Position numbers and translations under genes: made by a program. Of a DNA stretch of 64,000 bases, positions 1,632 through 64,000 are shown piece by piece. Under the pieces are notes generated by a model. That model did not search any database. It worked only from the letters and a program-made list of their open reading frames with translations, and was not told the origin of the DNA. The stretch lies in the sequence record PV660448. The stretch is one strand, 5' to 3'. This DNA is from Escherichia phage LF82-4. How positions within the stretch are numbered: position 1 is the first letter of the stretch; each line of letters begins with the position of its first letter.

Positions 1632-2000
1632 TTATGCAACTTTAATCCAATTGTCTAAATTTAAAACACCTTTGGCTTTCATTTTTTCGATCAGGTTATC
1701 TGCTGTAATGCGTCCATTTTGATACCATGTAACATCTTCAGAGTAACCAGTTTCTTCGTCAACATATGTTTCTGAACGAATTTTACCTGTAATAATAGTT
1801 TTTAATTCGTATGTGTCACCTGTGAAAAAGTTTGCTAACACAATTTTCCAAGAGAAATCATCAGAAGGACCTTCAGGGGTCATACAACCTACGAACTCAA
1901 ATTGCTCTTTGTATAACATCCACTGGAATTCTTTAATTTCGATAGCTTTATAACCGTCGTGGTCTTTACATTTGATGTATGAGTTCAGATTGATTTTCAT
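1632..2000 (-). CDS. hypothetical protein (122 aa)
   Basis: ORF track; ATG at 1998-2000; promoter upstream. Confidence 0.5.
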   Translation of the reverse strand: MKINLNSYIKCKDHDGYKAIEIKEFQWMLYKEQFEFVGCMTPEGPSDDFSWKIVLANFFTGDTYELKTIITGKIRSETYVDEETGYSEDVTWYQNGRITADNLIEKMKAKGVLNLDNWIKVA

Positions 2001-2042
2001 TTTGTTCTCCGGTTTGTTTTATTGATTAGGTGGTACAAGTCT

Positions 2043-2071
2043 ATAGTAACACATCCTACAGGAGAGTAAAC
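2043..2071 (-). promoter_or_regulatory. T4-type early promoter
   Basis: minus-strand GTTTAC-N17-TACTAT between terminator hairpin and ORF 1632-2000. Confidence 0.5.
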
Positions 2072-2100
2072 ACTTTTTTTAAACTTTTTCTGCCCTAAAC

Positions 2101-2126
2101 GCACAAAAGGGAGACCGAAGTCTCCC
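2101..2126 (-). terminator. rho-independent terminator hairpin (GGGAGAC-CGAA-GTCTCCC plus T-run)
   Basis: perfect 7-bp stem with tetraloop followed by TTTTGTGC on minus strand, just after stop of small basic ORF. Confidence 0.6.
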
Positions 2127-2131
2127 TAAAA

Positions 2132-2311
2132 TTATGCAACAACCTTTCCAAAACGAGAAGCATCATCTCGAAGAACTGCACGTGCTCTGCGCATGATCTT
2201 CTCAACTGTTTGATTAATACGAGAGTTCGACCCACGCTTGTATCCAGCGCGTTTAGAGGTACCATCAACTTTCTTTTCAACTGCTTTCTTTGCTTTAGCT
2301 TGTTTTGCCAT
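2132..2311 (-). CDS. small lysine/arginine-rich basic protein (59 aa), below ORF-track size cut-off
   Basis: manual translation MAKQAKAKKAVEKKVDGTSKRAGYKRG...; ATG at 2309-2311, TAA at 2132-2134, terminator immediately downstream. Confidence 0.4.
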   Translation of the reverse strand: MAKQAKAKKAVEKKVDGTSKRAGYKRGSNSRINQTVEKIMRRARAVLRDDASRFGKVVA

Positions 2312-2474
2312 TATAAATTCTCTTTAAATGAAAATGCAGGACTTATTGACATTGCCTGCGCAAGCCCTCAAGGGGAACATAGGTTTTGGATATTTAACGA
2401 CAGGATAACCATAAACCCGTCATCATACCTACCATGACTTACACAGCTAACCTTTTGCTGACGCATGATAGCAA

Positions 2475-2723
2475 TTATTTCAAAGTAATAACAAAATGAC
2501 GAACTGCTTTACGAGCTGCAGAAGCCAGAGGCTTAGCATATTTCAGTTCATCTTTTGCTTCCAGTTCAGCAGCCAGAGTAGCCTGAGCAGGATTCAGATG
2601 TTTGAAATATCGCAGGATTTCCAGTGCTTCGGCTTCAACATCAATTGAAGCGCCGTAGTTTTCGTGACCGTTATTCCATGCGTTGCGTTGCAGTTCAAGA
2701 GCGTGTTGTAATTGTTTAATCAT
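2475..2723 (-). CDS. rIII: rIII lysis-inhibition accessory protein
   Basis: 82 aa, same length and position as T4 rIII (downstream of gene 31). Confidence 0.7.
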   Translation of the reverse strand: MIKQLQHALELQRNAWNNGHENYGASIDVEAEALEILRYFKHLNPAQATLAAELEAKDELKYAKPLASAARKAVRHFVITLK

Positions 2724-14813: not shown

Positions 14814-15830
14814 CATTATGTTCAGATAAGGTCGTTAATCTTATCCCGGAATTATATCCAGCTGCATGTCACCATGCAGAGCAGACTATATCTCCAACTT
14901 GTTAAAGCAAGTTGTCTATCGTTTCGAGTCACTTGACCCTACTCCCTAAAGGGATAGTCGTTAGGCATTTATGTAGAACCAATTCCACTTATCAGATTTT
15001 ACACGGTAAGTAACTAATCCTGATGAAATTTCAAAATGTCTAGCCGCATCGGCTGCACATTCAAAAATAATCCCGTCGCATGAAATCTTTTTGATGTTAG
15101 CTGGCTTTTTGCCTTTCATCTTTTCAGATAGTTTAGTTTTAGTTTTTTCTGAATGTTTGTGATTAAAGAACGGGTTATTTTCAGCTGAACGTTTTCGACA
15201 CTTTCCACAAGTGTTGGCTGAAGTTGGTATACGAACACCACATTTACAAAACTTGTGGTTTTCCGGATTCCATCTACCATTTTTACTTCCGTGTTTACCA
15301 TAAATAGCTTTTCGACCATCAGATCCAAGCTTAAGCATCTTAGCTTTAACAGTTTCAGCTCGTTTCTTAGCAATTTCTTCCTTTAATGGATGATTCGAAA
15401 ATGTATCACCAAAGGACGCATCGGCGATATTATATCCATTAATTTTAGAATTTAGCTCGTTAATCCAAAAATTTTCTCGTTCAATAATCAAATCTTTCTC
15501 ATATGGAATTTCTTCCAATATAGAGCATTCAAAAACATTACCGTGTTTATTAAAAGATCTTTGAAATTTTATAGAAGAGTGAACACCATTTTCAAGGTCT
15601 TTAAAATGTCTCTTCCATCTTTTCTCAAAATCTTTAGCACTTCCAACATACACTTTACCATTTAAAGTGTTTTTAATCTGATAAATTCCACTTTTCATAA
15701 ACACCTCTTTAAAATATAGAAGTATTTATTAAAGGGTGGTCCTACAATTTAGCACGGGATTGTCTACTAGAGAGGTTCCCCGTTTAGATAGATTACAAGT
15801 ATAAGTCACCTTATACCCAGGCCTAAATTA
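14814..15830 (-). mobile_element. group I self-splicing intron in td (about 1017 nt) carrying I-TevI ORF
   Basis: 5-prime end TAATTTAGGCCTGGGTATAAGGTGACTTATACTTGTAATCTATCTAAACGGGGAACC matches recalled T4 td intron; exon 1 ends in U, intron ends in G; splicing restores TS frame. Confidence 0.85.
14961..15698 (-). CDS. I-TevI: GIY-YIG homing endonuclease I-TevI (intron-encoded)
   Basis: 245 aa from MKSGIYQIKNTLNGKVYVGSAKDFEKRWKRH...; recalled near-identity to T4 I-TevI. Confidence 0.9.
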   Translation of the reverse strand: MKSGIYQIKNTLNGKVYVGSAKDFEKRWKRHFKDLENGVHSSIKFQRSFNKHGNVFECSILEEIPYEKDLIIERENFWINELNSKINGYNIADASFGDTFSNHPLKEEIAKKRAETVKAKMLKLGSDGRKAIYGKHGSKNGRWNPENHKFCKCGVRIPTSANTCGKCRKRSAENNPFFNHKHSEKTKTKLSEKMKGKKPANIKKISCDGIIFECAADAARHFEISSGLVTYRVKSDKWNWFYINA

Positions 15831-17201
<1,371 letters not shown>

Positions 17202-21941: not shown

Positions 21942-24900
21942 ATGGTTGACATCAAACGTAAGTTCAGGGCCGAAGATGGTCTTGACGCAGGCGGTGATAA
22001 GATAGTTAACGTTGCGCTTGCTGACCGCACAGTTGGCACCGATGGCGTGAACGTTGACTTTTTGGTGCAAGAAAACACCGTACAGAATTATGACGATACG
22101 CGCGCGTATACAAAAGATTTTATTGTTCTTTATGATAATCGTTTTTATCAAGCTTTAAGCGATATTCCAGCTCCGGCAGGCCCTTTCTCTTTGGCTAAAT
22201 GGAAGGCAACTCGTACAGATGCAGATTGGATTACAGTTCAAGGCGGAGATTTCCAATTATCAGTAGGTAACTCTATTGCGGTTGATACTTCAGCTGGCAC
22301 TGATATTAATTTCACTTTGCCTCAAAATCCTTTAGATGGCGATACAGTTATTTTGTCTGATATTGGTGGTAGAGTAGGCTATGTAAAAGTTCAAATTACT
22401 GCAGAGGCTCAAAGTATTGTAAACTTTAGAGGACAACAGGTTCGTTCAGTTTTAATGACGCACCCAAAATCTAAAATGGTCTTCATTTTTAGCAACCGCC
22501 TATGGCAAATGTATGTTTCTGATTACGAACGTAATGCAGTCACAGTAACTCCTGCTAAGCCATATCAGGCGCAACCTAACGATTTTATCATTCGACGTTT
22601 TACATCAGCCGCTCCTATTAATATTACATTGCCTCGCAATGCTAATAATGGCGATATTATTAATTTAGTTGATTTAGACAAATTAAACCCGTTATATCAC
22701 ACAATTGTCAAAACTTACGATGATACAACTTCTATACGAGAAGCCGGTGTTCATGTAGCAGAAGGACGTAATACTGCGGAAGCATTCTTTGTTTATGATT
22801 CTGCTAATAGCTTATGGCGTGTTTGGGAAGGTGACCAGAAATCTCGTTTACGTATAGTTCGTAATGATACTGATTTACGCCCTAATGAAGAAGTTCTTGT
22901 TTTTGGAACTAATAATGATACAATCTCGACGGTAAATCTTACTTTGCCTACAGATATTTTGTCTGGTGATACTGTTAAAATATCGTTGAATTATATGCGT
23001 AAAGGGCAAACTGTAAAAATTAAAGCTGCTGAAGGCGATACAATTGCTAGCAGTATTTCTTTATTACAGTTCCCAAAACGTTCAGAGTATCCACCTGATG
23101 CACAATGGGTTTCTGTTAGTGAGCTGGAATTTAATGGCGATACTTCGTATGTACCTGTACTTGAGTTAGCTTATATAGAAGATTATTCATCTGAAACAAA
23201 ATATTGGGTAGTTCAACAAAACACTGTAACCGTCGAACGAGTCGATGCATCGAGCAATACAACTCGAGCTCGTTTAGGTGTTATTGCTCTTGCTTCTCAA
23301 GCGCAAGCAAATGTCGATTTAGAAAATGCTCCTGGTAAAGAACTTGCTATTACTCCGGAAACATTAGCAAATCGTACAGCAACTGAAACTCGTCGTGGTA
23401 TTGCTCGTATTGCAACAACTGCACAAGTTAACCAGAATACCGATTTTGCATTCCAAGACGACTTGATTATTTCTCCTAAGAAATTGAACGAACGTACAGC
23501 AACTGAAACCCGTAGAGGTGTTGCTGAAGTTGCAACTCAGGATGAAACTAATGCTGGCATAGATGATACCACTATTATTACTCCTAAGAAATTGGATGCC
23601 CGTCAAGGTTCTGAAGTTTTATCTGGTATTGTAAAATACACATCTACGACTGGTACTACAGCGGCTACTGTTCGTGGTAATGCTGGGACTAACGTTTATA
23701 ACAAAGCCGTAGATAATTTAACTATTTCTCCAAAGGCTCTTGACCAGTATAAAGCTACACATACTCAACAGGGCGCAGTAATTCTTGCTATTGAAAGTGA
23801 AGTTATCGCTGGTGAATCACAAGCCGGTTGGGCTAATGCTGTAGTGACTCCTGAAACTCTGCATAAGAAAACTTCTACTGATGGACGTATTGGTTTAATT
23901 GAAATTGCTACGCAAGCAGAAACTAACACTGGGACTGATTATACTAGAGCAGTAACGCCTAAGACGTTAAATGATAGGAAAGCTACGGAAGGATTATCCG
24001 GCATAGCCGAACTTGCTACGCAAGTTGAATTTGATACTGGAACTGATGATACTCGTATCTCGACTCCACTGAAAATTAAAACTCATTTTGATTCTTCTGG
24101 CCGTACCAGTGTTAATTCTGATTCCGGACTTATTGAAGAAGGAACCTTGTGGAACCATTATACTCTTGATATTTCTAAAGCAAATGAAACACAACGTGGT
24201 ACACTTCGCGTAGCGACTCAGGCAGAATCTAATGCCGGAACTTTAGATGATGTTCTTATTACTCCTAAAAAACTTTTAGGGACTAAGTCCACTGAAACGT
24301 CTGAAGGCGTGATTAAGGTTGCTACTCAGGCTGAAACTGTAACAGGAACTTCTGCTAATACTGCTGTATCGCCTAAGAATTTAAAATGGATTGTCCAGGA
24401 TGAACCAACATGGGCTGCTACTACGGCAATTCGTGGATTCGTTAAAACTTCATCCGGTTCTATTACATTCGTTGGTGACGATACTCAAGGTAGTACCCAG
24501 GATCTGAATCTTTACGAGAAAAATAGTTATGCTATTTCTCCATATGAATTAAACCGTGTACTTGCTAACTATTTGCCATTGAAAGCTAAAGCTGTAGATA
24601 GTAATCTGTTAGATGGTCTAGATTCTCTTCAGTTCATCCGTAGAGACATCGACCAGACGGTTAATGGTTCTTTAAGTCTTACTAAACAGACCAACCTGAG
24701 TGCTCCTTTAGTATCTACAAGCACTGCTTCTTTTGGATCTGAAGCATCTGTTACTCGTAGATTAACTCTTAATGACTCTAGCGGTTCCGAAATAGTTTTC
24801 ACTAAAGGAACTCAATCTCTTAGTAATAAAGAGAATTTCGTTGTTAGAGCATGGGGTAATAGCGCTACAGATGGTGCCCGTGATACAGTATTTGAAGCGG

Positions 24901-25775
24901 GTGACGAAACTGGATACCATTTCTATTCTCAGCGCGCTTCTGATAATAAAGTATCATTTAATATTAATGGAACACTTTATTCAACAGGCATTGTTTCTAC
25001 AAATGGATTAAACGTTACAGGTGTTTCTACCTTTACCGGGCCTATTAGTGCTACAGGCGAAATTGTTTCTAGTTCTCCTATTGCATTCAGAGCTATTAAC
25101 GGTAACTATGGTGTTATGCTTTATAATGCTGGTAACAGTTCTTATATTGCATTAACTAACTCAGGTGACCAGACTGGGACGTTTAATAACTTACGCCCGA
25201 TCACGATTAACAATGCCACAGGACTGGTTCGTCTTGACAACGGTGTTCAAATCACAAGTGGTGCAACAATAACTACCGGTGGGTTAACTGTAAATAACAG
25301 AATTATTTCTAACGGCGTTAAAACTGCCACTGTTTATACCGATAAACCAACAGCTTCTACTGTAGGTTTTTGGTCTATTGACATTAACGATTCTGCTGTA
25401 TATAGCCAATTCCCTGGATACTGGACGCGTGATAACAAAGGTAACCGTGACCAAGAAATTAAATATCCTGGTACTTTGACTCAATTTGGTAATAGCTTAG
25501 ATTCGCTTTATCAGGATTGGATTTGTTATCCTACAGGTGCAAATGGTGGTAGTATTCGTTATACTCGTACCTGGCAGAAAAATAAAGATGCTTGGACTTC
25601 ATTTGCAATGGTATTTGATAGTGGCAACCCACCTTCACCTAGCGATGTCGGTGCTATCCCGTCTGATAATGCTGTTATTGGAAACCTTACTATTCGAGAC
25701 TTCTTACAATTAGGAAATGTGAGAATTGTTCCAGACCCGGTTAACAAAACAGTTAAATTTATATGGGTTGAATAA
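21942..25775 (+). CDS. 34: long tail fibre proximal subunit gp34
   Basis: 1277 aa; first gene of late tail-fibre operon; T4 gp34-like. Confidence 0.9.
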   Translation: MVDIKRKFRAEDGLDAGGDKIVNVALADRTVGTDGVNVDFLVQENTVQNYDDTRAYTKDFIVLYDNRFYQALSDIPAPAGPFSLAKWKATRTDADWITVQGGDFQLSVGNSIAVDTSAGTDINFTLPQNPLDGDTVILSDIGGRVGYVKVQITAEAQSIVNFRGQQVRSVLMTHPKSKMVFIFSNRLWQMYVSDYERNAVTVTPAKPYQAQPNDFIIRRFTSAAPINITLPRNANNGDIINLVDLDKLNPLYHTIVKTYDDTTSIREAGVHVAEGRNTAEAFFVYDSANSLWRVWEGDQKSRLRIVRNDTDLRPNEEVLVFGTNNDTISTVNLTLPTDILSGDTVKISLNYMRKGQTVKIKAAEGDTIASSISLLQFPKRSEYPPDAQWVSVSELEFNGDTSYVPVLELAYIEDYSSETKYWVVQQNTVTVERVDASSNTTRARLGVIALASQAQANVDLENAPGKELAITPETLANRTATETRRGIARIATTAQVNQNTDFAFQDDLIISPKKLNERTATETRRGVAEVATQDETNAGIDDTTIITPKKLDARQGSEVLSGIVKYTSTTGTTAATVRGNAGTNVYNKAVDNLTISPKALDQYKATHTQQGAVILAIESEVIAGESQAGWANAVVTPETLHKKTSTDGRIGLIEIATQAETNTGTDYTRAVTPKTLNDRKATEGLSGIAELATQVEFDTGTDDTRISTPLKIKTHFDSSGRTSVNSDSGLIEEGTLWNHYTLDISKANETQRGTLRVATQAESNAGTLDDVLITPKKLLGTKSTETSEGVIKVATQAETVTGTSANTAVSPKNLKWIVQDEPTWAATTAIRGFVKTSSGSITFVGDDTQGSTQDLNLYEKNSYAISPYELNRVLANYLPLKAKAVDSNLLDGLDSLQFIRRDIDQTVNGSLSLTKQTNLSAPLVSTSTASFGSEASVTRRLTLNDSSGSEIVFTKGTQSLSNKENFVVRAWGNSATDGARDTVFEAGDETGYHFYSQRASDNKVSFNINGTLYSTGIVSTNGLNVTGVSTFTGPISATGEIVSSSPIAFRAINGNYGVMLYNAGNSSYIALTNSGDQTGTFNNLRPITINNATGLVRLDNGVQITSGATITTGGLTVNNRIISNGVKTATVYTDKPTASTVGFWSIDINDSAVYSQFPGYWTRDNKGNRDQEIKYPGTLTQFGNSLDSLYQDWICYPTGANGGSIRYTRTWQKNKDAWTSFAMVFDSGNPPSPSDVGAIPSDNAVIGNLTIRDFLQLGNVRIVPDPVNKTVKFIWVE

Positions 25776-25783
25776 GAGGTTAT

Positions 25784-26908
25784 ATGGAAAAATTTATGGC
25801 AAGGTTTGGACAAGGATACGTCCAAACGCCGTTTTTATCGGAAAGCAATTCAGTTAGATTTAAGCTAAGTATAGCGGGTTCATGCCCGCTTTCAACAACT
25901 AATCCGTATATTTTGTTCCAAAATGAGCCTTTAGGGTTGCAGTCTTTTGGTATTGGACTAAATGTTAGGGTGATAAATCCGGAAAATGGAACTATAGTTG
26001 ATAGTAAATTATATAATTTTGCGCCTACAAATAATGCAACTTCAGCTGCATTTATTTCGTTTGTTAATACATACGCAGATAATTTCATTTTCGCATTTAT
26101 TTCTAATAACAAATTTAATTTGCCGCCGGAAATAATTGAATGGTTTAAAGCTGCTGGGAGTTCAGTTATACCGTCAATTGAAATTGCTAGTCTTGTTGAT
26201 ATTTCATATTCAGCGTTTTATGTTTCAGGTAAAAATACTATTGCATTAGAACACATAAAATACAGTAATAAAAAAACAATTTCTGATTACGCAACCCCAT
26301 TAGATATTGTATATGACTCTATTGCTGATATAGGTGCTACCGGTTATCCTAGACGTACATATGAAGCTCTAGAAACGTTTTTATCTCCTGTTGGAGGAAC
26401 TAACAATGAAATAAAAAGGATGCCTACGTCATCCCTTGTTACTCCTATCGCAAACTACGGATTAAAGCCTACAGATTTTCTTTATTTGAAATTTCAATTA
26501 ATGGCTGATGAAGAATTATTAGAGGAAGGAACCACAAGACTTTCAATTCGTTTCTTTAAGTCTTCATCTAGCTCTCCTATATCATCTAAAGATATAAACT
26601 TTGATGGAACTGCCGGGGAGTGGAAGTTATACGAAGAATACGTTGAAATACCAGCTGAAGCCGATGGCTTTACAGTATATTGTTACCGTACGGCCCCAGT
26701 CGGTCAAGGTGGACTAAGAAATGTTATTTTCACTGAAGTATCATGTAACGGAAGTATAGCAAAACCCGCCGAGTTTGGTATAAACGGTATTCGTGTTAAT
26801 TACATTGATGAATCATTAACCGGTAATGATATAATGGACTTGCCTACCCAGTTATCTAACGACACAGGTAAGGTATTTGGGCAGGAATTTAAAGAGTACA
26901 CAGAATAA
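25784..26908 (+). CDS. 35: long tail fibre hinge protein gp35
   Basis: 374 aa; synteny. Confidence 0.85.
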   Translation: MEKFMARFGQGYVQTPFLSESNSVRFKLSIAGSCPLSTTNPYILFQNEPLGLQSFGIGLNVRVINPENGTIVDSKLYNFAPTNNATSAAFISFVNTYADNFIFAFISNNKFNLPPEIIEWFKAAGSSVIPSIEIASLVDISYSAFYVSGKNTIALEHIKYSNKKTISDYATPLDIVYDSIADIGATGYPRRTYEALETFLSPVGGTNNEIKRMPTSSLVTPIANYGLKPTDFLYLKFQLMADEELLEEGTTRLSIRFFKSSSSSPISSKDINFDGTAGEWKLYEEYVEIPAEADGFTVYCYRTAPVGQGGLRNVIFTEVSCNGSIAKPAEFGINGIRVNYIDESLTGNDIMDLPTQLSNDTGKVFGQEFKEYTE

Positions 26909-26930
26909 AGGAGACTTCGGTCTCCTTTTC
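26909..26930 (+). terminator. rho-independent terminator after gene 35 (GGAGAC-TTCG-GTCTCC plus TTTT)
   Basis: hairpin with UUCG tetraloop and T-run. Confidence 0.6.
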
Positions 26931-26933
26931 GCG

Positions 26934-26941
26934 TATAAATA
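26934..26941 (+). promoter_or_regulatory. late promoter TATAAATA for gene 36
   Basis: exact TATAAATA about 25 nt upstream of ATG. Confidence 0.6.
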
Positions 26942-26967
26942 CTTTAATATTAATAAGGAGACACGAA

Positions 26968-27624
26968 ATGGCCGATTTAAAAGCCGGAAGTACAGTTGGT
27001 GGTTCCGTCATATGGCATCAAGGCAATTTTCCTTTAATGCCAGCTGGCGATGACATCCTATATAAAACATTTAAATTATACACCGAATATAACAAGCCAA
27101 AAGCGGCTGATAACGATTTCGTATCTAAAGCAAACGGCGGGACATATCTCAAAAAGGTAATCTTTAACGAAGGTGTTGCAGTCAAAACAGCTGATGACCA
27201 AACGAATGGTATTTTTTCTGGTGGTGGTGACGCCGCGACATTTGACCAAACAAACATGGATATTGTTTCGTGGTATGGTATTGGGTTTAAATCATCTCAA
27301 GGTACAGGTGAAAGAACTGTTGTAATTGATACTCGCACCGGTAATATAAGTTCTAAAGGCGTTATTGAAGCATCTCAATTCAGAGCCACAACGTTAGCAC
27401 CTTTAAATAATTATGACCTTACTCGCAAAGATTATGTTGATAGTCAAATAAATACAGTTAATGCTAATGCAAACAGTCGTGTACTCCGTTCAGGAGATAC
27501 GATGACCGGTGCGCTAACCGCCCCAAACTTTTTCTCACAGAATCCTGCATCTCAACCATCGCATGTTCCACGATTTGACCAAATTGTTATTAAGGATTCT
27601 GTTCAAGATTTCGGCTATTATTAA
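26968..27624 (+). CDS. 36: long tail fibre distal connector gp36
   Basis: 218 aa; synteny. Confidence 0.85.
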   Translation: MADLKAGSTVGGSVIWHQGNFPLMPAGDDILYKTFKLYTEYNKPKAADNDFVSKANGGTYLKKVIFNEGVAVKTADDQTNGIFSGGGDAATFDQTNMDIVSWYGIGFKSSQGTGERTVVIDTRTGNISSKGVIEASQFRATTLAPLNNYDLTRKDYVDSQINTVNANANSRVLRSGDTMTGALTAPNFFSQNPASQPSHVPRFDQIVIKDSVQDFGYY

Positions 27625-27632
27625 GAGGACTT

Positions 27633-31749
<4,117 letters not shown>

Positions 31750-40466: not shown

Positions 40467-42680
40467 TTATTTGGCCGCTTCCACGGCCTTCATGAATTTA
40501 ACGATTTGAGCGACCTGTTCTTTTGAAAGAGTACCACGTCGTCCCATGTATTCTGACACAATATGATAATTGGTTTCGAATTCAATAACCATTTTATCAT
40601 CATTATCGTAAGCATTATCTTTAAGCTTATCGAAAATTTTAGCACACAATTCTAACTTCTTATTCAGGTCTGTATTAGTAGCACCTGCGAATCGATTCCA
40701 TCCCCAGCGATTATTTACTGTGGAGAGTTTTGCAAAGTCTTTACTGATTTCTTTGTTCTTAGAGCTAAAATACTTACTAAGGAAGTTAAGCTCTTCATTA
40801 CGAGTAATATGGTTTAGATAGGGCTGTGCTCTACGACTTGGTGATACATACTCATCATAATCCACTTTATCGATTAGCGTAATATAGTCATTAATTGATT
40901 TTTCGAACAAGCATTCTACTTCGCCAAGTTTACGAACTTTCTTAGCAATCTGTGGACGAACTACAGTGAACTCTTTAATATCTGACAAATCAGCAATACG
41001 AGTCAAGAAATTGGAGTCATAGTTCAACCAACCTTTATCTGCATCAAGACATTCAGCATTAGAACGATTACGAACTATAGCATAACCTTGGATTTCATCT
41101 GCTTCACTTGCCGGAATAAAGAGGTCTTCTGATACCCAAACATCGTTTTCATTCTTAAAGAATCGATGAGCACTTGGCGATTTAGGACGAGGCTCATTAG
41201 TTCGTTTCCTGACTTCAATCCATGGCTTAACGATTTGTAAAAGCTCTGAAGTCTTGTACATGTTAATGTTGTCGCCATCAAAGATAACTTTAAGGCGTTC
41301 CAGAAGTTTCATTGCATCTTCGTCTGTAGGGTCAACGAATAGTACGCTTTTACCAAAACCGCGTGGAACTTTACCAGTTAATTTAACCTCGTCTTTAGAC
41401 ATTTCAATTGAATTAAGAGCTCGCATTAATGGAACGCGTCCCTTAACGTCGTCAATAACAATTTCAACGTTTTTAATGTTAATGCCAATCAGGCTGTTAA
41501 TTGAAATGGTTGATGATGAGCTACCACTTTCACGAATACGACGAAGACGAGGGGATTCAACGATATCGTATACAACGCCAAGATTACACCACTCAGGCCC
41601 CATTTTAAAACGTTTGTACAGCTCAGAATAAGTTAGTTGTTCTTTGGAGTATTTCAGTGATTCAATATTAGACCCGGCCTTTTCCATGTATTTACGAGCG
41701 GTATAGCCAAGAGAATCGATTTCACGGAACACATGACGCGGGTATTTACAATCAATCCATTTCTTAGAATCTTCAGCGAACAATTTAGCATCGATTTCTG
41801 CAACGCGTTTATGGATATTTGCTACTGTACGTTTATCAAATGACAATGCTTCACGAGACGGAGCTACGTCTAGTTCACCCATAGGGAATTTAATATAAGC
41901 TGTAGTGCATCGAGTCATCATCCATGTTTGTTCTTTAATAACACTTCCGATTGGATATACAATACCGCCATAAACAGCCATGATATTACCGCGTTCACCC
42001 CATGGAGCTTCCTTGGCCAAATATACATCGTCAAATTCAGGGAAGTATTTAATATCTTTAACACCACGAACTTCTGCAATATCACCTAGAGGACGCATAA
42101 CATATGCAATTTCGGATGCGAACTTTTCAAAATCTTCCGGGTTAACCGGTACAACTACTTCTACACCAGTACGGTCATCAGGACCCATCTTATCTACAAA
42201 GGTCGGCTTAATTTGTGGACCCGTGTCATCTTGGTAGATTACGTAACCACGAACTTCGCCGTTGTGATAAGACGTAAGGTTAAACGTATCGGTATATGCT
42301 AGCGGAGCTTTAGAGCCGAGTCCGAATCCACCGATGAAATCGTTACTCGATGTTTTAGTTGAAGCAAAATATGAGTTATAGATTCCTGGCTCTTCGTCAT
42401 TACCTCTAATGGTGAAATCGCTCATACCAGGACCAAAGTCTCGAACTACAAAACGTGGGTCTAAACGACCTGGAGCCTGAACAATAAACTTATCAGTGCA
42501 ACCGTTAAGAATTTGTCCATCGATACAGTTTGTAATTAATTCACGTACACAAGCCAATTCTTTGTTTGTATAAAGGTCATTAGACAAAATCTTATAAACT
42601 TTGCTATTGCCTTGAATAGTGAATGCTGTGCTCTTACCACCAGAACCAATAATCGTTTCTTTAGCCGTTTCAATAATCAT
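40467..42680 (-). CDS. rIIA: rIIA
   Basis: 737 aa; N-terminal GHKL-type ATPase-like region; recalled similarity to T4 rIIA. Confidence 0.9.
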   Translation of the reverse strand: MIIETAKETIIGSGGKSTAFTIQGNSKVYKILSNDLYTNKELACVRELITNCIDGQILNGCTDKFIVQAPGRLDPRFVVRDFGPGMSDFTIRGNDEEPGIYNSYFASTKTSSNDFIGGFGLGSKAPLAYTDTFNLTSYHNGEVRGYVIYQDDTGPQIKPTFVDKMGPDDRTGVEVVVPVNPEDFEKFASEIAYVMRPLGDIAEVRGVKDIKYFPEFDDVYLAKEAPWGERGNIMAVYGGIVYPIGSVIKEQTWMMTRCTTAYIKFPMGELDVAPSREALSFDKRTVANIHKRVAEIDAKLFAEDSKKWIDCKYPRHVFREIDSLGYTARKYMEKAGSNIESLKYSKEQLTYSELYKRFKMGPEWCNLGVVYDIVESPRLRRIRESGSSSSTISINSLIGINIKNVEIVIDDVKGRVPLMRALNSIEMSKDEVKLTGKVPRGFGKSVLFVDPTDEDAMKLLERLKVIFDGDNINMYKTSELLQIVKPWIEVRKRTNEPRPKSPSAHRFFKNENDVWVSEDLFIPASEADEIQGYAIVRNRSNAECLDADKGWLNYDSNFLTRIADLSDIKEFTVVRPQIAKKVRKLGEVECLFEKSINDYITLIDKVDYDEYVSPSRRAQPYLNHITRNEELNFLSKYFSSKNKEISKDFAKLSTVNNRWGWNRFAGATNTDLNKKLELCAKIFDKLKDNAYDNDDKMVIEFETNYHIVSEYMGRRGTLSKEQVAQIVKFMKAVEAAK

Positions 42681-42692
42681 ATTTTTCTCTCA

Positions 42693-42893
42693 TCACAAGT
42701 TACGTTTAAAAATTTCTGCTACTTCAAGAAGTTCTTCTTTAGTAGCTGTATCGGTTTGTATTTTATATCGAATTTCTTTAAAGCGTTCTTTAAAGGACTC
42801 TGCTGACTCGATATCAAAAAATCTTTGGATAAGCCGGAATTCCCGGAGCACTGCTTTATCAAAAAGTTCCAAGTCCACGTTATATGTTCTCAT
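42693..42893 (-). CDS. hypothetical protein (66 aa), rIIA.1 position
   Basis: ORF track; synteny. Confidence 0.45.
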   Translation of the reverse strand: MRTYNVDLELFDKAVLREFRLIQRFFDIESAESFKERFKEIRYKIQTDTATKEELLEVAEIFKRNL

Positions 42894-42985: not shown

Positions 42986-44086
42986 TTACGCTGTGAAGAT
43001 TTTATCCCACATCGCAACAACCGCATCTCGGTTATACTTCTTCCATACTGCTTCAGCACGTTTAACTCGAGCTTCGTATGTGTCAGTGAATTCTAATACA
43101 GCTTTTGTGTAAAGCGCAACTACTTCTTTCTTAGGAGTAGAGGAATCAATTTCTACACGCACAGTATCTGGGTCATATTCGAATGTCGCGTGCGGATAAT
43201 CCTTAAAAACTAACTGAATTACAGGGACACCTTTAGAGATGGCTTCAATAGAACTATTCTCTACCGTACCCGTGTCAGGACACGTATTGATAAGTGCTTT
43301 AGCTGTTTTAAGACGTTCCATGATTTCACTGTGTGGAGCATCAATAATAACAGGATACTTAGCCGGTGGTGCCCATTTACTAGGACAATAACCAATACCA
43401 TTTTCGCCTAGTGCTTTAATCGCTTCAAGAGCAACATCAGTACGACGCATTTTAGTGTCATAACGTTGTGCACTAATAATCAGATCAGTCGCCGGAAGAA
43501 CTTCAGGTTTCTCATTCAAACAAATAACCGGATAATCTTCAGCTTCAAACAACGGATTTGCTCGCCAATAATCATAATCAATTTTGTCAGTCAGACCTGA
43601 AGTCATATAACAATATTTGCGTTCAAATTCACGGAAGGCTTTAGTAGGAGCATAACTCTTACCACCGTTCTTATGAATTTGAATAGTCTGGTCCCAAATT
43701 TGAACAATGCCACGAGATACAGGTTCAAATGGTGTTGCCATAAAATTCTTATGAACTTTAGAAAGACCTGCGTCTTTAATTGCCTGAACGGTTAGTTTGG
43801 TCGGTTCCATTGTAACAACGAAATCGTACTCATTAATGCCGGCTAGTTCAACAATCTTACGAGCCATAGTATAACTCATACCTAGACTGAATTTAGTCAG
43901 ATGACCAACAGGATGATGATTAACCTTCCAATCACCAAATGTGTCATTATCAAAGCCGATATAATCAATATCAGCACCGATGGACACAAGATATTTCAAC
44001 ACATTTAAATGTACTGCTTCAAGACCACCTTGTACACGTTCTGGGTTAAATGGGACTGCGCGAGATGGGATAAACATAACTTTCAT
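42986..44086 (-). CDS. putative GT-B fold glycosyltransferase (candidate DNA hydroxymethylcytosine sugar transferase)
   Basis: 366 aa; C-terminal segment TGTVENSSIEAISKGVPVIQL resembles the GT-B donor-binding motif (E-x7-E / EAM..G.PVI); N-terminal Rossmann-like MKVMFIP. Confidence 0.45.
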   Translation of the reverse strand: MKVMFIPSRAVPFNPERVQGGLEAVHLNVLKYLVSIGADIDYIGFDNDTFGDWKVNHHPVGHLTKFSLGMSYTMARKIVELAGINEYDFVVTMEPTKLTVQAIKDAGLSKVHKNFMATPFEPVSRGIVQIWDQTIQIHKNGGKSYAPTKAFREFERKYCYMTSGLTDKIDYDYWRANPLFEAEDYPVICLNEKPEVLPATDLIISAQRYDTKMRRTDVALEAIKALGENGIGYCPSKWAPPAKYPVIIDAPHSEIMERLKTAKALINTCPDTGTVENSSIEAISKGVPVIQLVFKDYPHATFEYDPDTVRVEIDSSTPKKEVVALYTKAVLEFTDTYEARVKRAEAVWKKYNRDAVVAMWDKIFTA

Positions 44087-44100
44087 AATTAAGCCTTATT

Positions 44101-44130
44101 AAAATTAAAATGAAGCTCCCGAAGGAGCTT
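44101..44130 (-). terminator. rho-independent terminator after gene 39 (AGCTCC-CGAA-GGAGCT plus T-run)
   Basis: hairpin plus TTTTAATTTT on minus strand. Confidence 0.55.
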
Positions 44131-44144
44131 AGGACATCTATCAA

Positions 44145-45965
44145 TTAACCAAGCATCCAATCTTTACGGAGTTCAGGGTCGTTACCCATGAGCATTTCAA
44201 ATAGTTCTTTCCAATTTTCAGGAAGTTTAACTACGTCGTACACAGGGTTTTGAATCATTTCTTTATATTCATCCCGCTGAAGTGAGCCCAATCCCTTGAT
44301 GTATCGAATACTATGCTTAGGCAGTGTATCTTTAACTTCTTCATACTCAGCTACAGTATAAAACCATTTTTGAGTTTTGCCAATTTGTGCAATAATTACA
44401 GGCGTTTTAACAAAGCGAATACGTCCTTGTTCAAACAATTCAGGCCAATTACTAAAGAAAGCAAGCAAAGCAGGATAAATACTTCCAAGGCCGTCATGAT
44501 CGGCATCGGTCATAATTGCAATATTACGATAGTTCGTATTCTCTGCCTTTTCACCAAGAATAAGACCTGTGATAGCACAGATATCGAATAACTCTTTGTT
44601 CTTCATCATATCAGCATATGACATACCCCAGCTATTCATCACCTTACCACGTAATGGGAATCCACCGTGTAGTTCACGGTCACGAACATCAATGAGATAA
44701 CCAATTGCCGAATCACCTTCTGTTAAGAACAATGTCGTATCTGCATCTTTACCACATTGGTTAGCTTTAATATGCTTATGAACCTTAGCTTTAGTTGCCT
44801 TTTTAGCTGCTTTAGTTTCTGCAGCCTTTTCTGCTGCCAATTTACGAGCTAATGCTGCTTCAACAATAGGCATAATCAAGGCTTCGTTTTTAAGAAGTGC
44901 CTGAGCAATTTTCTTAGCATCTAATTGGATATGATTACGAATATCACCATACGTTGACGTTAAACGTTCTTTAGTCTGAGAATCAAAACGCATGTTGCTC
45001 ATGTCTCTAATAAACATCAACATTGTGAGACATTCTTTAACACGAGCTTTAGTGACTTCAATACCCTTATATTTCTTTTTAATACCCGGCAAAAGATGTT
45101 CGCAGATATCGTCCATTACACATTCAACATGATGTCCACCATTTTTAGTATGGATGTTATTCACATAAGTTAAATGACGGAAGCCATCTGGTGATGTTGT
45201 GAATGCTATAGAGACTTTATCATTTTCTTGAATGATGTTATCTTCACCAAATTGTTTAGCAAATCGTTTAAAATTACCATCAACCTTTTTACCATTAAAT
45301 GTGAACTTGATATCAGGATAAACGACTGCCAATGTTTGAAGTCGGTCTAAAGTAATATCTAAATAAATTTGAGATAAATTATGCTCTTCAAATGAAGTGA
45401 AATCAGGAGTGAAGATTACTTTAGTGCCTTTACCTTTAGATTTCTTAGAAGACCATGATTTGTTTTCCATTCCGTTTGAACAGTTAACAGTGATTTCATT
45501 TTCACCATCTGACGTGATGCCTGTAAACAACGTAGAGAAGATATTAGTTAAACTACTCCCGACGCCGTTCATACCACCAGTCTTGCGTTCAGAGTCATCA
45601 CCAAAGTTACCACCGGCCTTTGGAATAGTCCAGGCTGCTACAGGCCCAGGAATTTGTTCACCTGTTTGGTCGGTAACTAAACCTTGAGGAATACCACGTC
45701 CGTTATCTTCCACCGAAACTTGATTATTTTTAATTTGCACATCAATTTTATTTGCAAACTTAAATGATGTACGAATAGCTTCATCAACCGAGTTGTCAAT
45801 AATCTCATCGATTAATTTAACCAGACCTGGAACATATTCAACTTGTTGATATTTACCAAACAAAAAACGCTCGTGGGCTTCTTTAGCAGAAGAACCGATA
45901 TACATACCACTACGTTTCTTAATATGTTCTACATCTGACAATACCTTAATTTCATTTTTAATCAT
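44145..45965 (-). CDS. 39: DNA topoisomerase II large subunit (GyrB-like), unsplit 39+60
   Basis: 606-aa continuous ORF; ATPase N-terminus; no bypass or insertion. Confidence 0.9.
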   Translation of the reverse strand: MIKNEIKVLSDVEHIKKRSGMYIGSSAKEAHERFLFGKYQQVEYVPGLVKLIDEIIDNSVDEAIRTSFKFANKIDVQIKNNQVSVEDNGRGIPQGLVTDQTGEQIPGPVAAWTIPKAGGNFGDDSERKTGGMNGVGSSLTNIFSTLFTGITSDGENEITVNCSNGMENKSWSSKKSKGKGTKVIFTPDFTSFEEHNLSQIYLDITLDRLQTLAVVYPDIKFTFNGKKVDGNFKRFAKQFGEDNIIQENDKVSIAFTTSPDGFRHLTYVNNIHTKNGGHHVECVMDDICEHLLPGIKKKYKGIEVTKARVKECLTMLMFIRDMSNMRFDSQTKERLTSTYGDIRNHIQLDAKKIAQALLKNEALIMPIVEAALARKLAAEKAAETKAAKKATKAKVHKHIKANQCGKDADTTLFLTEGDSAIGYLIDVRDRELHGGFPLRGKVMNSWGMSYADMMKNKELFDICAITGLILGEKAENTNYRNIAIMTDADHDGLGSIYPALLAFFSNWPELFEQGRIRFVKTPVIIAQIGKTQKWFYTVAEYEEVKDTLPKHSIRYIKGLGSLQRDEYKEMIQNPVYDVVKLPENWKELFEMLMGNDPELRKDWMLG

Positions 45966-55731: not shown

Positions 55732-56253
55732 TTAGTACCCATTATCCTGACGTTCAAAGTTGTGTTGGTTTTTCAAGTAGTAAAGTTTAAAGATTTCTTC
55801 AGCCGAAAGACCAAGACCTTGGAACATGTTCAGAACGAAATGCAGAATATCAATCATTTCAAATTTAATTTCAAGCTGGTCTTCAGGAGACAGTTCATCG
55901 ATACGACGATTTCGATATTCAGCATGTTGTGCTTTCCATGGCTTCCATACACTGCTAGCGGCTTTTTCACCATTGCTCATACCACCAAGTGAAGTCAGCA
56001 GTTCACGGAATTCATCATCAATATAATCTTTCTGATTACGCAGCCAATCAACAACATCACCAGCAGTAGCCAATTCATCAGGATGTTTGTTATGTTCAGG
56101 CTTGTCATTTGCCAGACGAACCTGTAAAGATTTCTGCATATCAAGCATTACCTGCAGTGGGTCTTTATCTTCGTGAATCAGAGCATTAAAATAAGCTTCT
56201 TCTGCTTTATCAACACCAGAAATAAGTTGTGAACATTCGTTAAAGTGTGCCAT
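55732..56253 (-). CDS. 56: dCTPase / dUTPase (MazG-like pyrophosphatase)
   Basis: start set at MAHFNEC; recalled similarity to T4 gp56. Confidence 0.85.
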   Translation of the reverse strand: MAHFNECSQLISGVDKAEEAYFNALIHEDKDPLQVMLDMQKSLQVRLANDKPEHNKHPDELATAGDVVDWLRNQKDYIDDEFRELLTSLGGMSNGEKAASSVWKPWKAQHAEYRNRRIDELSPEDQLEIKFEMIDILHFVLNMFQGLGLSAEEIFKLYYLKNQHNFERQDNGY

Positions 56254-56341
56254 TATTTTTCCTTTCAATTCAGTATAAGAGAGTTAATTCTAACATTAAT
56301 TTTATAAAGCGTAATAAATAATAGGTAACCAAGGAGATATT

Positions 56342-62676: not shown

Positions 62677-63018
62677 TTAAAAGAATTTAAATTTTTTCTT
62701 GGTTCGTTCATTAAAAGCTTGTTGTACTTGCATTGTAACACATTTTTCAACATGTGGTGCAAGTTCTGCTTTTCTGTCCTGGTCAAGAACTGCAAAGTCC
62801 ATTACGATTTTACCATCAACCCAGTCTAGTTTTGTAATATAGACTATATGATGAGAACCGTCTTCAAGTGTAATCAGAATCTCTTGAATGACATTTTCCA
62901 TTGCTGAACGGATAATTTTAAGAGATTCATTAAACACTCGTTCTTTGCGAATGTCTTCCCCTTCCGAAGAAGGGGATTCATCAACGATTTCTAGATTTAA
63001 ATCATCGAGATTATTCAT
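62677..63018 (-). CDS. 40: gp40 head vertex assembly chaperone (start at internal Met)
   Basis: 113 aa from MNNLDDLNLEIV...; position between uvsX and 41. Confidence 0.6.
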   Translation of the reverse strand: MNNLDDLNLEIVDESPSSEGEDIRKERVFNESLKIIRSAMENVIQEILITLEDGSHHIVYITKLDWVDGKIVMDFAVLDQDRKAELAPHVEKCVTMQVQQAFNERTKKKFKFF

Positions 63019-64000
63019 CGAAATCTTCCATTTCGTCAAGGTCGTTTTCAATATCTGCTGCAGACGGGGCATCAGAAGCTTTAACCGGAACTTTAGTTGT
63101 TGCTTTGCAATTAATAAGGTCGTTAACAGCGTCATCAACTTCTTTAATAGAAGAGATAGCACCTAGTTTATATTTAGTTTCAATTGCATCTCGGAAAGGT
63201 TTGTGTTTAAACAAAGGTCCCCAGAATTCTACACAATCAGTAGCTTTAGCACGCCACGATTTCTCTTCACGAATCATTTCACCTGTTTCTTCGTCAAGGA
63301 ATTCACGAGCATACCAACCGGCTTTAGGCTTAACAACAAATCCAATTTCAGTTGCCATTTCTAACAAGCCACTGAATGGGTCGATACCACCATCAAAATT
63401 AACTGTGATTGGGAAAGTAGATTTTTCTTTAACTGTACGAGATTTTTCTGCTTTCAACGTGAAGTCATAACCGGTCAATTCTGTACCTTCTTTAACCTGA
63501 CGTTTAGAGATAAAGAATACAGTGTTAGCAGAGTAAAGAATACCTGTACCACCACCCATAATCTCTTTAGGATATAGTCCGCCGATTTCCATTGCTGTAT
63601 GGTTGATTGCAACACATGGAATATCTTTAATAGTCAGATAAGGAGTCACAATGCGGAACAGAGATTTAAGTGCCTTAGCACGAGACATATCACCTACGAC
63701 TTTCTCGTTCAATGCATCTTCGGTTTCTTTCTTAGATGCAGTATTACCGATTGAATCGATAAAGATAATAACTTTATCACCGCGTTCAATAGCGTCAAGC
63801 TGATTAGTCATATCAACTTTAAGTTGTTCGACTGACTGAATTGGTGTATGAACTACACGGTCTAAATCAACACCCATTGAACGAAAATAAGATTCCGAAG
63901 CACCGAATTCTGAGTCATAAAACAAACAGATTGCATCTTTATATTTCTTCATATACGCTGCAACCATAGTTAGTCCAAACAACGTTTTAAAGTGTTTAGA
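63011..64000 (-). CDS. uvsX: UvsX RecA-like recombinase (N-terminus beyond window end)
   Basis: C-terminal 323+ aa visible; frame open to window edge. Confidence 0.9.
   Translation of the reverse strand, partial: SKHFKTLFGLTMVAAYMKKYKDAICLFYDSEFGASESYFRSMGVDLDRVVHTPIQSVEQLKVDMTNQLDAIERGDKVIIFIDSIGNTASKKETEDALNEKVVGDMSRAKALKSLFRIVTPYLTIKDIPCVAINHTAMEIGGLYPKEIMGGGTGILYSANTVFFISKRQVKEGTELTGYDFTLKAEKSRTVKEKSTFPITVNFDGGIDPFSGLLEMATEIGFVVKPKAGWYAREFLDEETGEMIREEKSWRAKATDCVEFWGPLFKHKPFRDAIETKYKLGAISSIKEVDDAVNDLINCKATTKVPVKASDAPSAADIENDLDEMEDFDE

Follow-up and report, generated by a model that had tools for sequence, protein, structure and literature searches.

A GT-B glycosyltransferase of the RB69 gp3 family in Escherichia phage LF82-4, a probable second-step DNA arabinosyltransferase

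The gene located between rIIA.1 and gene 39 of Escherichia phage LF82-4 codes for a GT-B glycosyltransferase of the RB69 gp3 family (hereafter, GT protein) that almost certainly belongs to the DNA arabinosylation pathway of RB69-type phages. Orthology, gene copy number and the homologs of phage DLP3 point to a particular step, and the GT protein is likely to be the second-step (beta-1,3) DNA arabinofuranosyltransferase of this pathway. An earlier sequence-only reading put the gene forward as a new candidate, which it is not. It was nominated as a glycosyltransferase already in 2018 (PMC6024577), the chemistry of the DNA product was solved in 2025−2026, and the gene is thus an already described pathway member, of which a 98%-identical ortholog has had its structure solved.

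The gene, its neighbours and the phage group

The window analysed here is a stretch of 64,000 nucleotides of LF82-4 DNA (PV660448). Its ORF listing contains an ATG-initiated frame of 366 amino acids on the minus strand at 42986..44086, lying, just as had been read from the sequence alone, between the rIIA side and gene 39. We identify this frame as the GT gene by the ORF call and by orthology to RB69 gp3 and the HY126 glycosyltransferase. The downstream neighbour is rIIA.1 (42693..42893, minus strand), which encodes 66 amino acids matching Pfam family PF24210 (T4_RIIA1, E = 2e−30), with rIIA at 40467..42680. The upstream neighbour is gene 39 for the large subunit of topoisomerase II (44145..45965, minus strand), recognized by the Pfam domains DNA_gyraseB, HATPase_c and TOPRIM_C and by the RB69 annotation; its product of 606 residues represents the unsplit gp39+gp60 form. 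Codon comparison with five orthologs yielded dN/dS values of 0.01−0.07 for the GT gene, the synonymous and non-synonymous changes numbering 28 versus 5 with RB69 and 41.5 versus 10.5 with HY126. Such low ratios argue that the frame is a real protein-coding gene under strong purifying selection. The GC content of the gene (0.37−0.41) is the same as that of its surroundings.

A spacer of 58 bp (44087..44144, minus strand) separates the stop codon of gene 39 from the start of the GT gene. It contains a Shine-Dalgarno sequence, AAGG, about 8 nt 5′ of the ATG, and a hairpin at 44113..44130 that has a 7-bp GC-rich stem with UUCG and is followed by a T-rich run. Compared with shuffled sequences the hairpin is not significantly more stable (fold z-score −1.0), and a scan for promoters and terminators revealed no enrichment, with five promoter-like sites versus 5.8 expected. 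In several relatives, the position of this spacer is occupied by a homing endonuclease gene of about 0.8 kb.

Megablast with the GT locus as a query retrieved 163 phage records, with query coverage of 80% or more and identity of 95−99.9% for 153 of them. All the matches are RB69-like Mosigviruses with E. coli or Shigella as hosts, the best ones being CCU7 (99.9%) and OLB35 (99.5%). In addition, window positions 40467−64000 are collinear with positions 1−23916 of Mosigvirus OLB35 at 96−98% identity. By these nucleotide comparisons, the window can be assigned to Mosigvirus (RB69 group) DNA. The T2/T6-type setting alluded to in the sequence-only reading does not hold: an origin of the window from a T2/T6-type Tequatrovirus was dropped because every close match to the locus and the collinear genome are Mosigviruses.

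The arabinosylation gene cluster of OLB35 occupies positions 24199..29933, and its equivalent start lies about 280 bp past window position 64000. Together with a copy of the GT gene, the cluster is found in the nearest genomes, CCU7, OLB35 and HY126, and judging from these relatives (96−99.9% identical) the LF82-4 genome presumably carries it as well. In Mosigviruses, the gp3-type gene and the cluster are 21 kb apart. Within the window, the sole other gene of the cytosine-replacement pathway is that of a dCTP pyrophosphatase, a gp56 homolog (55735..56256, minus strand), which was located by mapping the OLB35 annotation (15647..16168) onto the collinear window; the surrounding window ORF spans 55732..56268 and matches Pfam dUTPase_2 (E = 1e−6).

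Family, fold and relationship to GT4 enzymes

The GT protein and RB69 ORF003c/gp3 (NP_861693) are identical at 362 of 366 positions (99%), and in RB69, too, the gene is flanked by rIIA.1 and gp39. A search against PDB sequences led to 9IQZ and 9IR0 (E = 1e−248, 98% identity end to end), which were released on 2025-07-16 and represent the 'phage HY126 glycosyltransferase' without ligand and with UDP, respectively. In the genome of HY126 (PP658200), the gene of the crystallised protein again lies between rIIA.1 and the topoisomerase gene. Residues 1−366 of 366 match PHROG 8302 ('unknown function') with an E-value of 7e−223, and not a single family was matched in Pfam at E ≤ 10 or in NCBIfam at E ≤ 1. 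When the family alignment was compared with PDB sequences, 9iqz/9ir0 alone were returned. Exhaustive HMMER searches among 1.84 billion representative proteins collected 12 clusters only at E ≤ 1e−3 and identified no bacterial ancestor of the family among these representatives; because the clusters are so few, the RB69 gp3 family is taken to be small and phage-restricted. We classify the GT protein, on the strength of these similarities, as a member of the family formed by RB69 gp3, the HY126 glycosyltransferase and DLP3 gp76-77 (PHROG 8302). The 'Aat' arabinose-5ara-hC transferases probably belong to the RB69 gp3 family as well. In databases, the protein goes under the name 'hypothetical protein' in almost all the ~155 Mosigvirus genomes, and some homologs elsewhere are labelled 'DNA alpha-glucosyltransferase'.

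The best-conserved block of the family is a nucleotide-binding segment of the C-terminal domain, TGTVENSSIEAISKGVPVIQL, which comprises residues 272−292 and is encoded at 43211..43273 on the minus strand. Its invariant positions in the family alignment, 16 out of 21, are T272, G273, T274, V275, E276, N277, S279, E281, A282, I283, S284, G286, P288, V289, Q291 and L292, and they stay unchanged down to homologs of 41−44% identity. The glycine-rich beta-alpha start at the N-terminus, 'MK..F.P.R.VPF...RV.GGLEAV', is likewise invariant.

An AF2 model of the GT protein, built from six sequences only, is poor overall (pLDDT 61.7), with values of 80−90 for residues 190−350 of the C-terminal domain and below 50 for residues 113−188. 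Foldseek searches with this model returned 9ir0/9iqz first and then GT-B enzymes exclusively, among them PimA, LmbT, tll1591, BshA and WaaG (E-values from 3e−8 to 1e−6). Apart from 9ir0/9iqz, the nearest structures are those of the GT4 type, with TM-scores of 0.35−0.53 that are lowered by the poorly modelled N-terminal domain. The same GT4-type structural matches were reported for RB69 gp3 by Lee et al. (PMC13326640). The sequence-only reading had called a GT-B fold from resemblance to a donor-binding motif, and its call is borne out both by the HY126 structure with UDP and by the GT4-type folds that come next. Taking the title of this deposited structure together with the sequence identity of 98%, the GT protein is a UDP-binding enzyme of the GT-B fold.

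Alignment by hhalign with a Pfam-verified GT4 protein, a distant match, gave a probability of 94.6% over 341 columns, and two distant homologs produced weak sub-threshold GT4-conflict matches. The GT protein is only distantly related to GT4 and falls below every GT4 profile threshold, including those of Pfam Glycos_transf_1 (PF00534) and Glyco_transf_4 (PF13439). In the hhalign alignment, the GT4 segment 'E-t-f-g-i-s-n-f-E' is placed against G273-T-V-E-N-S-S-I-E281; the first Glu of the EX7E motif corresponds in the gp3 family to the invariant Gly273 and the second one is kept (E281). The canonical EX7E motif is therefore absent from the C-terminal domain of the GT protein, and because the first Glu is missing, catalytic details should not be transferred from GT4 enzymes.

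DNA chemistry and the assignment of the transfer steps

RB69 DNA was found to contain arabinose, not glucose, by Thomas et al. 2018, who nominated ORF003c as the arabinosyltransferase from HMM, HHpred and Phyre2 evidence for a GT-B fold (PMC6024577). Using MS/MS and NMR, Lee et al. 2026 established that RB69 cytosine is fully replaced by arabinosylated 5-hydroxycytosine, two forms of which, alpha-D-Araf-O5-dC and beta-D-Araf-(1->3)-alpha-D-Araf-O5-dC, occur side by side, with an ether link to 5-hydroxycytosine (PMC13326640). Mosigvirus NP has the same mono- and di-arabinosyl nucleosides as RB69 (PMC13390438). The 5hodCMP synthase is gp48, a flavin-dependent thymidylate-synthase homolog annotated in these phages as 'dCMP hydroxymethylase', the first transfer was assigned by Lee et al. 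to gp46:47 of the gene cluster, and RB69 gp3 was proposed as 'beta-arabinosyltransferase 2' (PMC13326640). In the same study, gp76 and gp77 of Acinetobacter phage DLP3, a relative of DLP1 with tri-arabinose, together added a third arabinose to RB69 DNA in vitro when supplied with UDP-Araf, and single DLP3 transferases were inactive (PMC13326640). Other papers credit Mahler et al. 2025 with the double arabinosylation of Bas46 and Bas47, with the observation that deletion of an arabinosyltransferase (Aat) renders Bas46 sensitive to a defence system, and with protection by arabinosylation against type II R-M, Brig1 and type I CRISPR-Cas.

The sequence-only reading proposed a DNA sugar transferase with anti-restriction consequences. 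Its general direction stood, as the DNA-sugar pathway is tied to restriction and CRISPR evasion (PMC13326640, PMC13216743), while the base and the sugar proved wrong, being 5hoC and arabinose. The reading in its original form, in which the enzyme would add glucose or another hexose to 5-hydroxymethylcytosine DNA in the manner of T4 alpha-gt/beta-gt or of the T2/T6 enzymes, is hardly credible. It could appeal to the GT-B fold class common with T4 alpha-gt and beta-gt, to the 'DNA alpha-glucosyltransferase' label of some homologs and to the deep-profile HHpred match between ORF003c and 1XV5, although that match is at a level common to all GT-B enzymes (PMC6024577). However, RB69 and NP DNA carry arabinose on 5-hydroxycytosine, and neither hmC nor glucose was detected in them by MS and NMR (PMC13326640, PMC13390438); the supposed 'dCMP hydroxymethylase' of these phages is, as stated above, actually the 5hodCMP synthase. 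A relation to the T4 enzymes fares no better at the sequence level: the Pfam families of alpha-gt (PF11440) and beta-gt (PF09198) are unmatched even at E ≤ 10, tblastn with both T4 proteins found nothing in the window, and hhalign with the shallow family profile (Neff 1.6) gave a probability of 0.2% for each, a value which excludes membership in these families but not the common GT-B superfold that others have reported.

The preferred assignment of the GT protein to the second arabinose transfer draws on the distribution of two transferase families, which we compared across 50,697 phage records. The cluster transferase (299 aa; OLB35 24749..25648) and the GT protein display no detectable sequence similarity (E = 2.3). 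Homologs of the former are present in 348 records, including phages of Escherichia, Acinetobacter, Klebsiella, Serratia, Enterobacter, Proteus, Yersinia and others. The gp3 family is present in only 211 records, 137 fewer, and is confined to phages that also carry the cluster transferase family, namely, Mosigvirus-like phages (at least 95% identity), 55 Acinetobacter phages (~43%) and one Tegunavirus. There is one gp3-type copy per Mosigvirus-like phage and two per Acinetobacter phage, so that lineages with zero, one and two copies are those for which one, two and three arabinoses, respectively, have been reported or would be expected. Because copy number follows the extra sugars, the gp3 family would be a chain extender and not a base modifier, and counting its copies in a genome seems to offer an easy way of predicting mono-, di- or tri-arabinosylation.

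These data also bear on the 2018 proposal for RB69 ORF003c, according to which the protein would be the first-step arabinosyltransferase acting directly on modified cytosine. A UDP-binding enzyme of the GT-B fold could well fill such a role, yet we regard it as improbable. Apart from the dependence on copy number, the cluster transferase is the more widespread of the two families, and Serratia phage 92A1, reported to have arabinosylated 5hoC, encodes the cluster transferase, whereas no gp3 homolog was detected in Serratia, Klebsiella or Shewanella records among the 50,697. In mono-arabinosylated Thanatos, the single ara-GT is syntenic with gp46:47 (PMC13326640). Moreover, when the 2018 paper appeared, gp46:47 had yet to be recognized as a single ORF and the chemistry had yet to be corrected.

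Gene order in Acinetobacter phage DLP1 is informative as well. Here, two gp3-type genes, 58% identical to each other, lie adjacent inside the arabinosylation cluster, which runs from arabinose-5-phosphate isomerase through sugar kinase/pyrophosphorylase, HAD phosphatase, thymidylate-synthase homolog, first transferase and kinase to the two gp3-type genes. One might argue that the GT protein glycosylates a non-DNA target (a host envelope component, a phage protein or some small compound) and is found alongside the DNA pathway only incidentally, considering that its closest structural relatives, PimA, WaaG, BshA and tetrahydrobiopterin glucosyltransferase, have lipids, LPS or small molecules as substrates and that the Mosigvirus gene is located at a distance from the cluster. 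Several observations make this very improbable: the Acinetobacter homologs adjoin the genes for the kinase, the first transferase, the 5hodCMP synthase and UDP-Araf synthesis, the DLP3 pair works on DNA in vitro (PMC13326640), and the gp3 family never leaves the company of the cluster transferase family.

Taken together, sequence comparisons and published chemistry suggest a scenario for the second-step role of the GT protein. The thymidylate-synthase homolog makes 5hodCMP, and 5-hydroxycytosine takes the place of all Mosigvirus cytosine. The 299-aa cluster transferase, whose gene adjoins that of the synthase, would then put alpha-D-arabinofuranose on the 5-hydroxyl of the base, and the GT protein would, after replication, use UDP-Araf to attach a further arabinofuranose at O3 of the one already in place, giving beta-D-Araf-(1->3)-alpha-D-Araf-O5-dC on a fraction of cytosines. 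The bulkier disaccharide might serve as an extra steric shield against DNA-targeting host defences and nucleases; the size of the share that the GT protein itself has in defence evasion is something we infer. The acceptor of the GT protein is probably a sugar already on DNA and not the base, and glycosylation of hmC DNA, suggested earlier as a test of activity, is for this reason expected to fail.

It should be noted that the two linkages of the disaccharide have opposite anomeric configuration, which requires that either the first or the second transferase of Mosigviruses be inverting. The scaffold of the GT protein is GT4-like and GT4 enzymes normally retain; combined with Gly273, the invariant E276 and N277 and the beta-furanoside product, this raises the possibility that the gp3 family may differ from canonical GT4 enzymes in catalytic mechanism or stereochemical course. 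Similarly, the mixture of mono- and di-arabinose in RB69 might reflect selectivity for DNA-sequence context and not simple inefficiency. Considered jointly, a non-canonical mechanism or stereochemistry and/or sequence-context selectivity is a speculative and rather unlikely reading.

Which restriction, CRISPR and type IV systems can be evaded by a phage used in therapy or as a model depends on the hypermodification of its DNA, and assigning genes to the individual parts of the modification is of practical use for this reason. For the gene studied here, the main remaining value lies in annotation, as Pfam and NCBIfam do not recognize the gp3 family and its members are mostly 'hypothetical' or mislabelled.

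Comparison with known systems

Among non-phage structures, the best matches are GT4 enzymes such as PimA (2GEJ/4NC9), BshA (3MBO) and WaaG (2IV7), with Foldseek E-values of about 1e−8 and probability of 1.00. Like the GT protein, they begin with a glycine-rich segment at the N-terminus and have a nucleotide-binding helix with the pattern 'E-A-x-x-x-G-x-P-V' in the C-terminal part, even though identity is only 11−16%. GT4 enzymes are retaining, whereas the product of the GT protein would be a beta-furanoside and its acceptor a DNA-linked sugar.

T4 alpha- and beta-gt (GT72/GT63; 1XV5) resemble the GT protein in being phage GT-B enzymes that use a UDP-sugar to decorate modified cytosine of duplex DNA, with an effect directed against nucleases. 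However, the T4 enzymes attach glucose to the hydroxymethyl of hmC, while arabinofuranose on the sugar of 5-hydroxycytosine is proposed for the GT protein, and their genes differ in genome location. With the gentiobiosyl-forming beta-glucosyl-HMC alpha-glucosyltransferase of T2/T6 the analogy is functional only, in that a second sugar is placed onto the first one; the genome background, Mosigvirus in our case, is different.

The RB69 gp46:47 family (DLP3 gp79) belongs to the same pathway and has the same presumed donor as the GT protein, but its members are 299 and not 366 amino acids long, and they are proposed to act on the 5-hydroxyl of the base instead of on a sugar. Closer relatives are DLP3 gp77 and gp76 (ADLP1_075 and ADLP1_074 of DLP1), known as 'beta-arabinosyltransferase 2/3', which are 40−43% identical to the GT protein over the full length and have the invariant motifs in common with it. 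In DLP3 these tandem paralogs reside in the cluster, and both are required together to add the third arabinose, which is beta-1,5-linked. Mosigviruses, by contrast, have one gp3-type copy outside the cluster and two sugars at most.

The closest counterparts are RB69 gp3 and the HY126 glycosyltransferase, with 98−99% identity over 366 residues, the same slot and the same genus-level backbone. The substitutions, 4 relative to RB69 and 7−9 relative to HY126, do not affect any of the family-invariant positions, and the GT protein is for practical purposes the same protein.

Annotation of the glycosyltransferase family

The family comprising the window glycosyltransferase (42986..44086, minus strand) and its RB69 gp3 orthologs represents an annotation gap. 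Searches against Pfam and NCBIfam returned no match to the window protein, and the family is invisible to both. Within our phage collection, almost all Mosigvirus records name the homolog 'hypothetical protein'. Those of HX01 and several Acinetobacter phages are labeled 'DNA alpha-glucosyltransferase', a designation that is very likely wrong for this family.

The EX7E motif of canonical GT4 enzymes is degenerate in the glycosyltransferase. In the equivalent segment (residues 272-281 of the ORF, DNA 43244..43273), the position of the first glutamate is occupied by an invariant glycine, G273, and E276, N277 and E281 are likewise invariant in the family alignment. This degeneracy may be related to a furanose donor or to a beta linkage.

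Variation at the locus among relatives

The genome record of HY126, whose enzyme is a 98%-identical ortholog with solved structures (PDB 9IQZ/9IR0), differs from the crystallized protein. The GenBank CDS (PP658200, 3744..4844 of the extracted locus) reads KGVLGIQ, whereas the PDB sequence and every family member have KGVPVIQ; P288 and V289 are invariant across the family alignment. The deviating GenBank reading probably reflects either an error in the sequence or variation between strains.

Relatives also differ at the junction of the glycosyltransferase gene and gene 39, where a homing endonuclease gene is present in some phages and absent from others. The endonuclease gene, of about 0.8 kb, is found there in phiC120 (1830..2627 of its locus), phiE142, p000v, F27, a20, SQ17, phi25-307 and BEU50. 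The window lacks it, having a spacer of only 58 bp (44087..44144) that contains a 7-bp UUCG hairpin (44113..44130).

In Shigella phage JK45 (NC_054940), a full-length glycosyltransferase gene is accompanied by an additional 411-bp ORF (1794..2204 of its locus) located between it and rIIA.1. This ORF matches part of the glycosyltransferase and appears to have arisen by partial tandem duplication. The JK45 record is classed as Tequatrovirus, yet its glycosyltransferase region is Mosigvirus-like (97.6%).

Gene order beyond the window and at gene 39

The end of the window (63011..64000 and beyond) falls within the RecA-like uvsX gene, which is cut there. In the collinear Mosigvirus genome OLB35, uvsX is directly followed by the entire 5-hydroxycytosine arabinosylation cluster, which encodes a kinase, the first transferase, 5hodCMP synthase, peptidase-like proteins, a HAD phosphatase and a bifunctional kinase/uridylyltransferase; therefore, the cluster would lie just past the window end. 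The 5hodCMP synthase of OLB35 is annotated as 'dCMP hydroxymethylase'.

Gene 39 of the window (44145..45965) encodes a single 606-aa large subunit of topoisomerase II. The same unsplit arrangement is found in RB69, whereas in T4 this subunit is split into gp39 and gp60, which in part explains why the rIIA-to-39 interval differs among T4-like genera.
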